56,337 bases of DNA from Nanobdellota archaeon (GTDB lineage Archaea; Nanobdellota; Nanobdellia; SCGC-AAA011-G17; PNOQ01): NCBI GenBank assembly GCA_018829185.1, contig JAHJUI010000001.1:1-56337 (forward strand), read 5' to 3'. The position numbers and the translations under genes are program-made. Within the stretch, counting starts at the first letter, position 1. The number at the start of each line of letters is the position of its first letter. Shown here one piece after another: positions 20,099 through 52,852 of this stretch. A model generated the notes under the pieces. The model saw only the letters and a program-made list of their open reading frames with translations, was not told the DNA's origin and made no database searches.

Positions 20099-20342
20099 TT
20101 TCTTTTTTATTTCTTAAAAAACAGCCAGCCCAAATAAGAGAACAATTCTTTTTTGTGCAAAAACGCCTATTAAATGTGCAAAAACTCTTTATACACAAGG
20201 TTGATAAAGACATTTTAAATTTCTATTTCATCTCAAATATCATTACTAATTCGTAATAATCAAACAAAAATATTTATAAATCAAATTCTTCTAAAAACAA
20301 ATGTGTATACTTTCACAATCTTCTTCTGACGTCGATTTAAAT

Positions 20343-20450
20343 AACAAAACTGTGAAAAGGTGTTATTCGGGAAAATAACTAAGAAAAATTCCCTTCTTTT
20401 GCCATTTAAGGCTAAATTTTACTTCTATTTGCGAATCGCAACCAAAATTT
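20343..20450. repeat. ~108-bp imperfect direct repeat, copy 1 (copy 2 at 22238-22345)
   Basis: AACAAAACTGTGAAAAGGT...GGGAAAATAACTA.GAAAAATTC...CTTTTGCCATTTAA...GAATCG...AATTT in both copies. Confidence 0.85.
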
Positions 20451-36354: not shown

Positions 36355-36397
36355 AAATAAGAAAAGTTTATAAGGAAAGAAGATAACCCCTTTTTAA

Positions 36398-36485
36398 GCC
36401 CTGATAGCTCAGGCAGTTAGAGCAGCAGATAAAAAAGCTGAATCTCGTAAACTGCAGGTCGAGGGTGCGAATCCCTCTCGGGGCT
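36398..36485 (+). tRNA. tRNA-Thr(CGT) with 14-nt non-canonical intron at 30/31 (36429-36442)
   Basis: Acceptor GCCCTGA/TCGGGGC; D-stem GCTC/GAGC; BHB GAG-CAGC-AG^A...GCTG-AA^T-CTC; spliced arm GCAGT-CTCGTAA-ACTGC; own TATA at ~36361-36373. Confidence 0.9.
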
Positions 36486-36495
36486 TTTTATTAAA

Positions 36496-37968: not shown

Positions 37969-38865
37969 ATGAATAAAATATTAACAATATTAATGATTTT
38001 CATACTTTTAATAGTTCCACTTGCAGCTTTAGCTCAAATGGATTCAGAAGTTGAAAATCCAAATGAAACTGTTGAGGAACCAGTAGAAGAACTTCAAGAA
38101 GATGAAGCATGGTTCCCAGAAGAAGAAACTAGTGATGAAACTACTGAAGAAGAGGCTGAAGAAGAAGGAACTCAATGTACTGAAGGAATTGGCGCAATTG
38201 AGCCTTGTTATGCAGGATTTAGATTTGTTGAATGCGTAAACGGATATTGGAATGTACATGTACCTACAATAGGAAGTTGTAATGTAGAATGTATTGAAGA
38301 TTCAGATTGTTTAAGGGAACAAGTTTGTATGGAAGAAATCTATAAATGTGTAGTTGTTGAACAAGAAACTGAAGGACCTCAAAAGGAAAATCCAATTGAA
38401 GACGTACCTTTTTGGGATCCTACAAAAGAACAACTTTGTAAGGACACAGGCGGATCTTGGGTAATTGAAGTTACTACAGAAGACGTAGAAGAAGCTCATT
38501 GTGACTGTGGAGAAAATACTTGGAACAATGTTGAAGGATGTCAAGTTGTAGAAGATTCTAATGACAATGATGACAATGATAATGACAACGATAATGACAA
38601 TGGAAGTCACACTTCAGGTAGAGGGGCTATTAGAATTTACAGAGAACAAGAAGCTGAAGAAGAAACTCCAGTTGAAGAAGAAGCTACTGAAGAGGTTATA
38701 GAAGAAACAACTGAACAAAAAGGTTTCTTAAACCAAATTACAGGTTTTTTCGGAGCATACGGAGATAAAGTAAGTCAAGAAGCTAGTTACTTTTTATACC
38801 CACTTTTAGGTATTTTACTAGTTGGTTTAGTTATCTTTGGTGTTAGACAAGTTTCTTTACATTAA
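37969..38865 (+). CDS. Acidic Cys-rich surface protein with C-terminal TM
   Basis: Signal peptide, CxxDxDC, LCxxTGGxW module, (ND)n tract, ITGF-TM. Confidence 0.8.
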   Translation: MNKILTILMIFILLIVPLAALAQMDSEVENPNETVEEPVEELQEDEAWFPEEETSDETTEEEAEEEGTQCTEGIGAIEPCYAGFRFVECVNGYWNVHVPTIGSCNVECIEDSDCLREQVCMEEIYKCVVVEQETEGPQKENPIEDVPFWDPTKEQLCKDTGGSWVIEVTTEDVEEAHCDCGENTWNNVEGCQVVEDSNDNDDNDNDNDNDNGSHTSGRGAIRIYREQEAEEETPVEEEATEEVIEETTEQKGFLNQITGFFGAYGDKVSQEASYFLYPLLGILLVGLVIFGVRQVSLH

Positions 38866-38942
38866 ATTTTTTCTTTTTTTCTTTTTAATTAATTCTTAGA
38901 ATAAAAACTTTTATAAATCAACTCTTTCTCAGATTTTACTAT

Positions 38943-39139
38943 GTCGGGGTGCCGGAGTCTGGAAAAAATCTCCATGAGAAATTATGAGATATTCTAGCGG
39001 GCAGGTCCGGATTAACGAAAGGTGATCTGGTGCTAAACTTAAGTTTTCCAGGAAAAAAGAAATCCTGTGGCTTAGTGCCTACGAGGGATATCTAAACATT
39101 TGATTGTTGGATACTCGAATTCAAATCCCTTCCCCGACA
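38943..39139 (+). tRNA. tRNA-Leu(TAA) with four introns (~38967-38997, 39006-39036, 39044-39061, 39088-39119)
   Basis: Spliced product GTCGGGG-TG-CCGGAGTCTGGAAAACGG-G-CAGGA-CTTAAGA-TCCTG-TGGCTTAGTGCCTAC-GAGGG-TTCAAAT-CCCTT-CCCCGAC-A; each junction forms a BHB or relaxed BHB. Confidence 0.88.
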
Positions 39140-39230
39140 TATTTTTTTCTTACACTGTGACAAAGTTATATAACTATAAAAAACCCAATTAGTTAATTTT
39201 AAAAATAAGTACATTATTGTAATTCTTATT

Positions 39231-39304
39231 GCCTCAGTGGCTTAGCCTGGTAGAGCACCGCATTGGTAATGCGGAGGTCGGGGGTTCAATTCCCCTCTGA
39301 GGCT
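39231..39304 (+). tRNA. tRNA-Thr(GGT), intronless
   Basis: GCCTCAG/CTGAGGC acceptor; CCGCA-TTGGTAA-TGCGG anticodon arm. Confidence 0.96.
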
Positions 39305-39344
39305 TTCAAAACCTTTAAAAACCCCTTATTTTACCTGTCTAACA

Positions 39345-39803
39345 ATGGATATCAAAAAACAATACAAAAAAATAGAAAATAAATTCAAATTACCTAATTT
39401 TGATAAATTCGATAAAGAATTTGAGATATCTACCTTAGATACAGATGATTTTCTATTAAGAAATGTAAGAAGAAGAATGAACAATAAACTAACTTTCTTT
39501 ACTCAAATCTTTGACACAATTTTATTTCCAAATCCAAATTCATTAATTTCAATGCACGAATCAAAATCTTGTTCAGAAGAAGAAAAAATCGAAATAATGA
39601 AGTTCTACAATAAATTAATGATTTTAGAAAGAGAAGCACTTTCCTTTGATATTGAACCAGATGACAAAAAAGAAGCAGAATTCATAAACAAACTTTGGAA
39701 ACAATGGACAGAGATAAAAAAAGAAACAAATAAATTAGTTGAAAAAATGAAAGAATCTTGGAAAGACGAAGATAAGAAAATTAAGAATCATTATTTTGGC
39801 TAA
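39345..39803 (+). CDS. Hypothetical helical protein
   Basis: 152-aa ORF upstream of the pilus operon. Confidence 0.75.
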   Translation: MDIKKQYKKIENKFKLPNFDKFDKEFEISTLDTDDFLLRNVRRRMNNKLTFFTQIFDTILFPNPNSLISMHESKSCSEEEKIEIMKFYNKLMILEREALSFDIEPDDKKEAEFINKLWKQWTEIKKETNKLVEKMKESWKDEDKKIKNHYFG

Positions 39804-51432: not shown

Positions 51433-52332
51433 ATGGATAAACAAATAATAAATGACTTTGTAGATTATACATCAACAAAACAAATAGCAAGGAAATATAA
51501 TTTAGATTTAAAATATATAAGGACGTTATTGATAAATCAACTAGGGAAAGAAAAGTATCTTAAAATTGCCCATACAATAGGGGCAAAAACTGTTTCTAAA
51601 AAATTGAAAGATCCCTCTTACAGAAAAAATTATTCTGAAAAAATGAGCAATTCTGTTTCAAAATCAATAAAACAAAAAATGAAAAATAAAAATTTTAAAG
51701 AAAAGTGGCTTAAGAAATCTAATGAAGCTTCTAAAAAAGGACTTTCTAAAATTAACTTTCTTTTAGAAACAAATGAAGAGTTTAGAAAAAATTGGGTTAA
51801 GAATTGTTCAAAAGGTGGAAATAAAACTTACAAACTTAAAAAAGGAGCATTTGATATAAATAATTTAGAAGCCAGAAAAGAAGGTTCATTAAGAGGTTTA
51901 CAAAACACTTGTAGAAACAAAATAGGCCCTAAAAATGAAAAAATGTATAATCATTTTGAAAAAAGCATAGCTAATTTAATATTAAAATCTGGATATAATT
52001 ATGAATATGAAATAATCTTCAAAGATAAAAATCCAAATGGATTCATAAGCTGTGATTTTAAGCTAATTGGAATAAAAAATGAAATATTGATTGAAGTAAC
52101 TTGCTGGGACAAATTCAAAGAAAAAGCAATTAGCCTAAACAAAAAATTTATTATTTTGAAAAAACAATTAAAAAACTTTGAATATATAGTGGTAGCGCCC
52201 ACTAAAAGATTTAGCGAACGTTATTCTGAATTTTTAAATCCAGAGATTAATTGCTTAAGTTATTATGAATTTAAGAATAGATTGAATATGATAGCGGGAG
52301 TCAGATTTGAACTGACGACCTCTGGGTTATGA
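51433..52332 (+). CDS. Putative PD-(D/E)xK (Vsr/DUF559-like) endonuclease with basic helical N-terminus
   Basis: FEKSIANLI...YEYE...SCDFKL...LIEV core; last 13 codons run antisense through tRNA-iMet. Confidence 0.7.
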   Translation: MDKQIINDFVDYTSTKQIARKYNLDLKYIRTLLINQLGKEKYLKIAHTIGAKTVSKKLKDPSYRKNYSEKMSNSVSKSIKQKMKNKNFKEKWLKKSNEASKKGLSKINFLLETNEEFRKNWVKNCSKGGNKTYKLKKGAFDINNLEARKEGSLRGLQNTCRNKIGPKNEKMYNHFEKSIANLILKSGYNYEYEIIFKDKNPNGFISCDFKLIGIKNEILIEVTCWDKFKEKAISLNKKFIILKKQLKNFEYIVVAPTKRFSERYSEFLNPEINCLSYYEFKNRLNMIAGVRFELTTSGL

Positions 52333-52397
52333 GCCCAACGGGCACTCCTAGTTGGACATTTAGCTCAATGAAGGGCTAAATTCTGCCCCATCCCGCT
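52292..52397 (-). tRNA. Initiator tRNA-Met(CAT) with 31-nt D-loop intron at 15/16 (52352-52382)
   Basis: A1-U72 AGCGGGA/TCCCGCT; three G-C pairs closing CT-CAT-AA; BHB GGGC-AG^A-ATTTAGC...GCTAAAT-GTCC-AA^C. Confidence 0.93.
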
Positions 52398-52649: not shown

Positions 52650-52722
52650 TTTTTTCTTCTTTTTTATTATTTTAAAGAACATTAGAAACCTTTAAAAACA
52701 AAAATCATGCCTATTTTTTCAT

Positions 52723-52806
52723 GCCGAGATCGCATAATCTGGTATTGCGCAGGATTGCTAATCCTGTTTCCTTATGGATATCTGGGTTCAAATCCCAGTC
52801 TCGGCG
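52723..52806 (+). tRNA. tRNA-Ser(GCT)
   Basis: GCCGAGA/TCTCGGC, CAGGA-TTGCTAA-TCCTG, long variable arm, G73. Confidence 0.96.
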
Positions 52807-52852
52807 TTTAACAACTTTTATAAACAATTTCTAATTCTATTTTATTACCAAA

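Follow-up and report, generated by a model that had tools for sequence, protein, structure and literature searches.

The window analysed here, a stretch of 56,337 nt from a Nanobdellota archaeon (assembly GCA_018829185.1, contig JAHJUI010000001.1, forward strand), contains a locus of 197 nt at 38943-39139 (+) that is read here as a tRNA gene cut into five exons. An earlier note, made from the sequence of the window, had proposed a single tRNA-Leu(TAA) in which removal of introns of 31, 31, 18 and 32 nt at 22/23, 30/31, 37/38 and 53/54 gives a product of 85 nt. This proposal is borne out by the ARAGORN call of the joined exons, by 10 intron-free relatives, by an environmental allele without the introns and by the splicing motifs. 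We conclude, with a probability of about 0.9, that the locus is a functional single-copy tRNA-Leu(UAA) gene of a groundwater Woesearchaeota (DPANN) archaeon, interrupted by four bulge-helix-bulge introns. The structure of the gene, its boundaries, its motifs, its single-copy status and the presence of the splicing enzymes are established at the level of DNA sequence.

Exons, introns and the need for the gene

The 5′ end of the locus is a G-rich 7-mer that starts at position 1 of the acceptor stem, and the 3′ end is its exact complement followed by the discriminator A. All exons and introns lie on the forward strand. Exon 1 (38943-38966, 24 nt) supplies the 5′ strand of the acceptor stem, positions 8-9, the 5′ strand of the D-stem, the D-loop and position 22; its end is confirmed by environmental contigs from metagenome runs X6 and X4 that run directly into exon 2. 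Intron 1 (38967-38997, 31 nt) interrupts the D-arm at 22/23 and is not present in the 10 intron-free relatives or the X6 allele. Exon 2 (38998-39005, 8 nt) comprises the 3′ strand of the D-stem (23-25), position 26 and positions 27-30 of the anticodon stem, which is interrupted at 30/31 by intron 2 (39006-39036, 31 nt). Exon 3 (39037-39043, 7 nt) holds position 31 and anticodon-loop positions 32-37, including the anticodon TAA, and is followed at the canonical 37/38 site by intron 3 (39044-39061, 18 nt). Exon 4 (39062-39087, 26 nt) contains position 38, the 3′ strand of the anticodon stem, a variable arm of 15 nt and the 5′ strand of the T-stem. Intron 4 (39088-39119, 32 nt) lies at 53/54, the junction of T-stem and T-loop, and exon 5 (39120-39139, 20 nt) completes the gene with the T-loop, the 3′ strands of the T-stem and acceptor stem and the discriminator A; CCA is not encoded.

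The joined exons (85 nt) were called tRNA-Leu(taa) by ARAGORN. Cut positions taken as linear coordinates yielded no tRNA, whereas the same numbers taken as canonical tRNA positions gave Leu(taa). All seven acceptor pairs form in the spliced product, the 15-nt variable arm contains a 3-bp stem, the anticodon is TAA, and the D-stem consists of 3 bp closed by a G13-A22 mismatch. RNAfold returned a cloverleaf for this product (−34.2 kcal/mol). The long variable arm, leucine anticodon and discriminator A73 that define a class II tRNA-Leu are thus all found, A73 being a mark of leucine identity, and the core of the molecule is common to the Leu(CAA) and Leu(TAG) tRNAs of the same genome.

In unspliced form the gene was missed by ARAGORN and by the Rfam tRNA model when the whole window was searched, although both found three other tRNA genes there. 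It was also missed by the intron option of ARAGORN on the excised locus and by Rfam at E<=10 on a 501-nt stretch. Several other accounts of the inserts were rejected. A split or permuted tRNA gene is ruled out, as the five exons follow one another in order on a single strand, all inside 197 nt. Group I and group II introns, whose catalytic fold takes hundreds of nucleotides, are likewise ruled out for inserts of 18-32 nt, none of which matched an Rfam intron family at the gathering score or at E<=10. A C/D-box guide RNA within an intron was rejected because the only match, to snoR9, was at chance level (14.1 bits against a gathering score of 90). Finally, the introns were not copied from the exons: the longest words that they have in common with the mature tRNA are 4-6 nt, a length reached by 303-1998 of 2000 shuffles.

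The earlier note had asked for a check that no other Leu(TAA) gene exists. Four search routes through the 96%-complete assembly found no second Leu(UAA) gene: ARAGORN run on the full assembly with introns permitted, Rfam tRNA at E<=1 (37 matches in the assembly), blastn-short with the mature sequence against the assembly, and a scan for GC-rich acceptor pairs anchored on the T-loop (82 candidates). In the last of these, this locus had the longest span among the tRNA-like candidates, 197 nt compared to 161 nt or less. The other leucine tRNA genes found in the genome have the anticodons CAA and TAG. TTA accounts for 57.1% of leucine codons and occurs 52.7 times per 1000 codons (480 ORFs of at least 200 codons), and the interrupted gene is the sole predicted decoder found for this most used leucine codon.

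The gene is flanked by an ORF that ends at 38865 and by a tRNA-Thr(GGT) at 39231. A TATA-box-like element, TTTATAAA (38910-38917, +), preceded by an A-rich stretch, starts 33 nt upstream of tRNA position 1 and may act as the promoter. A TTTWWAA motif starting between −37 and −29 occurs in 24 of 39 tRNA genes of the genome, including this one, compared to 2.1% of random positions. Three nucleotides after the discriminator is a run of seven T residues (39142-39148, +). Oligo-T runs are archaeal terminators, and this one is a likely site of transcription termination.

Boundaries from relatives and environmental alleles

A solver that relied only on the motif, removing bulge-helix-bulge candidates and passing each product to ARAGORN, was ambiguous, with several accepted solutions per gene. 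At this locus it accepted 12, so motif and ARAGORN alone do not fix the structure. Taken as a rough guide, the same solver suggests at least 14 further interrupted tRNA genes in the genome. The best solutions had three introns for the genes at 20229-20389 and 21053-21193 of contig 26, two introns for those at 19:13376-13532, 18:6200-6323, 13:9254-9373 and 25:36783-36897, and one intron for eight others.

The boundaries used here do not depend on the splicing motif, because they are fixed by the intron-free genes of relatives and by environmental contigs. BLAST of 41 genomes (that of the window and 40 relatives) gave matches in 27, mostly to exon 4, which is 100% identical over 25-28 nt to several relatives. 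The mature sequence was then aligned to 19 relatives' loci with a spliced aligner that left the acceptor stem free to vary. For two of these loci (L002 and L013) the 5′ halves were not placed; the other 17 each gave a product with all seven acceptor pairs and an ARAGORN call of Leu(taa). Ten of the 17 are intron-free (L004, L005, L007, L010, L011 and L014-L018), with a core nearly letter-identical to the joined exons. Two (L006 and L008) carry a single intron, at 37/38, and four (L009, L012, L019 and L020) carry two introns, the boundaries in L012 being uncertain with two gaps and an odd anticodon loop. When an intron-free relative's gene was used as the query throughout the order, matches were found in 236 of 240 genomes.

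The remaining relative of the 17, L003, belongs to another family of the same order (genome G038) and has a Leu(UAA) gene of 181 nt with four introns: about 13 nt in the D-loop, 28 nt at 30/31, 14 nt at 37/38 and 40 nt in the T-loop at 59/60. The window gene has introns at two of these positions only. Two congeners of L003 (L104 and L106) have genes of 160 nt with three or four inserts, depending on whether two gaps in the D-loop are one intron of about 45 nt. One further match (L107) was spurious and another (L105) was interrupted by a contig end. Introns at 30/31 occur in five lineages (the window, L003, L009, L019 and L020), all with four of four central pairs, and in L019 one of these pairs is kept through changes on both sides. 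Outside the window gene, introns at 37/38 were found in L003, L006, L008, L009 and L019.

Environmental assemblies contributed further evidence. Nine studies contained the DNA of this locus, in groundwater metagenomes and in one run with no label other than 'metagenome'. A contig of 1939 nt from run X6, which belongs to a different study, matches 38700-38966 with 3 differences in 267 nt (98.9% identity) and then continues straight into exons 2, 3 and 4. In a second X6 contig exon 4 is joined directly to 39120-39139. We read these contigs as the allele of a close relative, an allele that shares the upstream flank and acceptor stem of the window gene and has none of its four introns; relative to the window gene it carries a compensated pair change in the variable arm. 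The junctions 38966|38967, 38997|38998 and 39119|39120 are thereby fixed at the DNA level. The earlier note had found the boundary of intron 1 ambiguous within a run of A residues. This ambiguity is now resolved: the intron-free allele reads four A residues followed by CGGG, and only cuts at 38966|38967 and 38997|38998 give that sequence.

Another study (run X5) yielded contigs that match 38700-39047 and 39093-39314 without differences. The first extends from exon 1 through the first two introns and exon 3 into the start of intron 3, and the second covers most of intron 4, exon 5, the spacer and the tRNA-Thr gene. As these contigs are identical to the window, the intron-bearing form is not an assembly artefact. 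A contig from run X4 extends from 39058 through exon 4, intron 4 and exon 5, also without differences. The same run contains a third form of the gene with another 5′ flank, lacking introns 1 and 2 and carrying a different intron of 16 nt at 37/38; it also appears to have an intron inside the T-loop. At least three forms of the gene co-occur in these aquifers, with zero-, two- and four-intron forms in groundwater. The public contigs break repeatedly within the gene (at about 38966, 39047, 39057 and 39087-39093), a consequence of exons that are common to co-occurring strains. Three further runs contain 99-100% of the sampled words of a 5-kb stretch around the locus. No RNA run was listed among those containing this stretch, and the one metatranscriptome compared with it (X14) yielded no matching contig, a result that carries no information on expression.

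Splicing motifs, enzymes and predicted order of removal

We scored the motifs at the homology-fixed boundaries with a strict geometry, in which the 5′ bulge consists of two exon bases and one intron base, the 3′ bulge of two intron bases and one exon base, and the 4-bp central helix pairs exon positions −5 to −2 with intron positions n−5 to n−2. The core of 3-nt bulge, 4-bp helix and 3-nt bulge fits all four introns, with 4, 4, 3 and 4 of 4 central pairs, respectively. Intron 1 has four central pairs (one of them G-U), an outer helix of 4 bp and an inner helix of 0 bp, with a 5-bp helix following after one unpaired A. In intron 2 the central helix GGCA/TGCT is flanked by an inner helix of 8 bp and an outer helix of 1 bp. 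Intron 3 has three of four central pairs (one A-A mismatch), an inner helix of 4 bp and an outer helix of 1 bp that lengthens to 6 bp upon removal of intron 2. The central helix of intron 4, CGAG/CTCG, is accompanied by an inner helix of 7 bp and an outer helix of 1 bp. These scores agree with the earlier description of introns 2 and 4 as clean and introns 1 and 3 as relaxed.

When introns of the same lengths were placed at random in the window, 0.08-0.15% of placements reached four central pairs with a flanking helix of 4 bp or more, and 0.8% reached three or more with such a helix. Within the precursor no other site equals introns 2, 3 and 4 in their motif class, and the class of intron 1 is matched elsewhere only at the site of intron 2, an intron of equal length. 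The strict hBHBh′ form, for which both flanking helices have at least 2 bp (PMC3728597), was found at none of the four: the inner helix of intron 1 is 0 bp and offset by one nucleotide, the outer helix is 1 bp in introns 2 and 4, and that of intron 3 is 1 bp until intron 2 has been removed. We conclude that the motifs are relaxed variants in which the cores are strict and the flanks are relaxed.

The host assembly (826,748 bp in 27 contigs, 96.3% complete, about 30% G+C) contains one gene for the splicing endonuclease EndA, on contig 23, with a match to PF01974 of 97.7 bits. No paralogue was found in the assembly at E<=10 with the EndA protein as query. The predicted protein has 177 residues from an internal Met and contains both the N-terminal domain (PF02778) and the catalytic domain (PF01974). 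It is collinear with the Methanocaldococcus jannaschii enzyme (M. jannaschii, 1A79) over residues 5-177 with two single-residue gaps, and the alignment revealed no inserted loop relative to 1A79. In the alpha subunit from Nanoarchaeum, by comparison, the conserved His is preceded by six additional residues. A single gene of about 170-180 residues, one N-terminal and one catalytic domain and the lack of a gene for a second subunit are the features of an alpha4-type gene, and all were found here; the host EndA therefore looks, from its sequence, like a plain one-subunit enzyme. Of 304 relatives of this protein in public genomes, almost all of the best 80 carry the title Woesearchaeota, Nanoarchaeota or Nanoarchaeia. 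Head to head with the EndA gene is one that appears, from its HxHxDH motif, to be RNase Z-like, and an RtcB ligase is encoded on contig 13 (match of 528 bits).

In the published view, as put in a passage of Kaneta 2018 (PMC5829648), one-subunit (alpha4) endonucleases cut strict motifs only, and the same article ties broad specificity and non-canonical introns to inserted loops. The relaxed flanks of introns 1, 2 and 4 are at odds with the strict-motif view and count against our reading.

From these elements a pathway can be proposed, in which transcription, cleavage, ligation and any order of splicing are those that the sequence predicts. Transcription would run from the gene's own TATA-type promoter to the T7 run. 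Each intron would then fold with the adjacent exon bases so that a 4-bp helix lies between two 3-nt bulges, and the single EndA, of one-subunit architecture like the M. jannaschii homotetramer, would cut both bulges of all four motifs. RtcB would join the five exons into the 85-nt class II tRNA. The ends would then be trimmed and CCA would be added post-transcriptionally, as it is not encoded.

The earlier note had also proposed that splicing is ordered, since the outer helix of intron 3 needs intron 2 to be removed first. Removal of intron 2 would restore the anticodon stem, which is the outer helix of intron 3. In three contexts, the predicted cost of forming the intron 3 motif fell from 8.0 to 4.4, from 5.7 to 4.2 and from 4.7 to 3.1 kcal/mol once intron 2 was absent. 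The growth of the helix from 1 to 6 bp and the falling cost lend modest support to removal of intron 2 before intron 3, an order that is plausible on these folding predictions. The order is not obligatory, because introns 2 and 4 themselves have an outer helix of only 1 bp; evidently the host enzyme would not need a longer one. The claim of ordered splicing therefore stands as a preference and not as a requirement.

In the minimum-free-energy fold of the 197-nt precursor (−64.7 kcal/mol) the central helix of intron 1 is formed, with pairing probabilities of 0.93-1.00. The central helices of introns 2-4 are absent from this fold (0.00-0.03), as the D-stem and alternative registers compete with them. 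When the motifs were imposed one at a time on the full precursor, the cost was 5.4, 3.8, 4.7 and 2.1 kcal/mol for introns 1 to 4, respectively. Intron 4 is thus the cheapest to form, and the easiest cuts would be those of intron 4 and then intron 2. A precedent for such an order comes from Cyanidioschyzon merolae, in which RT-PCR showed that introns are removed in an order set by motif stability (PMC3728597).

Alternative readings and known systems

The locus could be a decaying or non-functional copy, with the working tRNA made from an intron-free gene on missing DNA or with the assembly mixing strains. The assembly is 96.3% complete in 27 contigs, the intron-free form in X6 had depths of 11.4 and 3.8 compared to 2 for an intron-bearing fragment in the same run, and three of the four central helices lie outside the minimum-free-energy fold. 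However, the X6 form sits in the same upstream flank, which identifies it as an allele of the same locus and not as a second locus, and the intron-bearing form assembles identically in the independent study X5. Every stem of the spliced product is intact and all four junctions keep the core, which drift would not preserve; the promoter motif and T-run are also intact. Relatives moreover keep multi-intron Leu(UAA) genes, one other with four introns. We consider decay very unlikely.

Slighter still is the chance that the gene is real and has fewer true introns, either because inserts are kept as an expanded loop or removed in some other way or because the boundaries differ. The 12 motif-only solutions speak for such a reading, as some of them cut the D-arm and anticodon arm elsewhere and some also excise part of the variable arm, but in 10 intron-free relatives and in the X6 allele the gene agrees with the joined exons at precisely the junctions used here. 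Furthermore, the inserts are covered by no Rfam family beyond chance-level matches, and they are too short for group I or group II introns. We give the least credence to an assembly or binning artefact, in which the inserts would come from mis-joined reads of the leucine tRNA genes of co-occurring relatives. Although the breaks of public contigs inside the gene and the co-occurrence of at least three gene forms in these aquifers are what such mis-joining might leave, X5 and X4 contigs span exon and intron parts with 0 differences, and 99-100% of the sampled words of the 5-kb stretch recur in three further runs. The preferred reading is a functional gene with four introns.

Several consequences follow from a four-intron gene. 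For annotation, neither ARAGORN nor the Rfam tRNA model detects the only gene found for a tRNA by which 5% of all codons are read. For enzymology, all four motifs would have to be cut by an enzyme that is collinear with the M. jannaschii protein, which lacks the loop, and in three of these motifs a flanking helix is weak or displaced. For evolution, the zero-, two- and four-intron forms in groundwater, together with relatives that have zero to four introns, provide a natural series for the arrival or loss of introns. Three features lift the gene slightly above the routine: it is the sole decoder found for the most used leucine codon, the endonuclease is free of inserts, and the zero-, two- and four-intron forms co-occur in groundwater, with an intron-free allele in a nearly identical flank. 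It is possible, though on balance doubtful, that the four introns differ as a block between near-identical genomes of the same aquifer type through a single recent event, for instance if a DNA copy of the spliced tRNA took the place of the gene or if introns were gained in a burst. If so, intron turnover would be fast enough to watch in natural populations, and a plain one-subunit endonuclease without an inserted loop would cope with relaxed motifs at four positions.

Disrupted genes of this kind have been suspected before. A section of Kaneta et al. (2018; PMC5829648) describes the tRNA sets of DPANN and Asgard archaea as incomplete and suspects unidentified disrupted genes. A survey of complete Nanobdellota genomes (bioRxiv 10.64898/2026.05.13.725050) gives a median of 35 tRNAs per genome with tRNAscan-SE, and its discussion of missing tRNAs considers split genes or losses as possible causes. 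Interrupted genes such as the one described here would be a simpler explanation than either. Our literature search found no paper on multi-intron tRNA genes in Woesearchaeota specifically, and among the main texts covered it found no peer-reviewed statement of an archaeal tRNA with four introns.

Several known systems resemble this gene in part. The tRNA genes of Thermoproteales (Pyrobaculum, Thermofilum and Caldivirga) also contain several short bulge-helix-bulge introns each, many at non-canonical positions in the D-arm, anticodon stem and T-arm, which are removed by a protein endonuclease and a ligase, as set out in portions of the review by Fujishima and Kanai (2014; PMC4033280). These hosts differ in being hyperthermophilic crenarchaea with a two-subunit (alpha-beta)2 endonuclease that has a specific loop, whereas the present host is a small AT-rich DPANN archaeon with one detectable one-subunit EndA that has no insert relative to 1A79. 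In the red alga C. merolae, Soma et al. (2013; PMC3728597) describe up to three introns per tRNA gene, located in the D-arm, at 37/38 and in the T-loop and associated with relaxed motifs. That system is unlike ours in being eukaryotic and nuclear, with a heterotetrameric endonuclease, some permuted genes and a maximum of three introns.

The Asgard archaea provide a further parallel. Valentin-Alvarado et al. (2024; PMC11291895) report, in their account of three Asgard genomes, multiple introns in over half of the tRNA genes, and an October 2026 preprint (10.64898/2026.10.13.758758) reports as many as five intervening sequences for a single Asgard tRNA gene. As described in these sources, the tRNA genes contain many inserts, which lie at sites compatible with a bulge-helix-bulge and are partly missed by standard tools, especially in the D-arm; the introns were recognised against compact relatives, which is the same logic as that used here. 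The differences are in lineage, Asgard as opposed to DPANN, and in number, with up to five per gene there compared to four here. The earlier note had suggested that four introns may be exceptional. The present gene does exceed the 'maximum of three introns' that the 2014 review gives for tRNA genes of Thermoproteales (PMC4033280), but the Asgard preprint reports up to five and the gene of L003 also has four. The gene is thus neither a new kind nor a record in intron number, and it adds to the known multi-intron tRNA genes.

Leu(UAA) gene forms in groundwater

The region of the window surrounding the Leu(UAA) gene (38700-39400) was compared with public contigs of the groundwater sequencing runs X4 and X6. 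In these runs the gene co-occurs in at least three forms, one with four introns, one with none and one with two. The intron-free form has the same flank as the four-intron form. The two-intron form has another flank and contains a different 16-nt intron at position 37/38, as well as a likely intron in the T-loop. In the spacer between the Leu gene and tRNA-Thr, the X6 form has four other nucleotides in place of window positions 39140-39229. In intron 3 of an intron-bearing X6 fragment, the A run carries deletions of 2 nt and 1 nt.

Intron sequences in relatives

The Leu(UAA) gene of L020 (1402-1546, minus strand) is from genome G007, which belongs to the same family as the window's genome. A 10-nt stretch of its 31-nt D-arm intron, CAGGACTTAA, reproduces the spliced junction spanning the gene's own 30/31 intron site. 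A match of this length was reached by only 5 of 2000 shuffles. The junction copy hints at an origin of the L020 D-arm intron by duplication of part of a gene copy that was intron-free or spliced. The window's four Leu(UAA) introns were without a junction-copy signal of this kind.

The 30/31 introns of the Leu(UAA) loci L003 (genome G038) and L009 (G040) have a run of about 16 nt in common, TTGCTAAACTCAGATT, even though the two genomes belong to different families. The window's 30/31 intron has only the 3' end in common with them, and that end is constrained by pairing.

Other candidate interrupted tRNA loci

Two further loci were found in the window. Plain ARAGORN could not assign an anticodon to a tRNA with a 14-nt insert at 36397-36486 (plus strand; Rfam 45.6 bits). 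Allowing introns, or applying the motif solver, makes it Thr(CGT), the insert then falling near position 32 in the anticodon arm. A tRNA-like locus of 106 nt at 52292-52397 (minus strand) scored 27.4 bits with Rfam, under the cut-off of 29; the motif solution that fits it best, tRNA-Met(CAT), has a single 29-nt D-arm intron. This candidate intron has a central helix of 4/4, an inner helix of 6 bp and an outer helix of 3 bp. tRNA-Ser(GCT) (52722-52807) lies about 325 nt away on the opposite strand.

Elsewhere in the genome, paralogous tRNA genes on contig 26 (20229-20389, 161 nt) and contig 13 (9254-9373, 120 nt) have identical acceptor stems. The best motif solutions are candidate Ile(TAT) genes with three and two introns, respectively, the longer paralogue containing an additional insert, about 31 nt long, in the D-arm/anticodon-stem region. 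A 157-nt tRNA-like gene on contig 19 (13376-13532, minus strand) has the loop CTGTAGA and pairs C1 with G72 in its acceptor stem; it is most likely tRNA-Tyr(GTA) containing two or more introns. The ARAGORN assignment of this locus as Phe with a 77-nt intron is a miscall.

The EndA neighbourhood

EndA lies on contig 23 (locus L021, 9079-12336), head to head with a 296-aa ORF of metallo-beta-lactamase fold containing an HxHxDH motif; the ORF downstream of EndA is 291 aa. Judged from its sequence, the 296-aa ORF probably encodes RNase Z, in which case two tRNA-processing genes would have one divergent promoter region in common.
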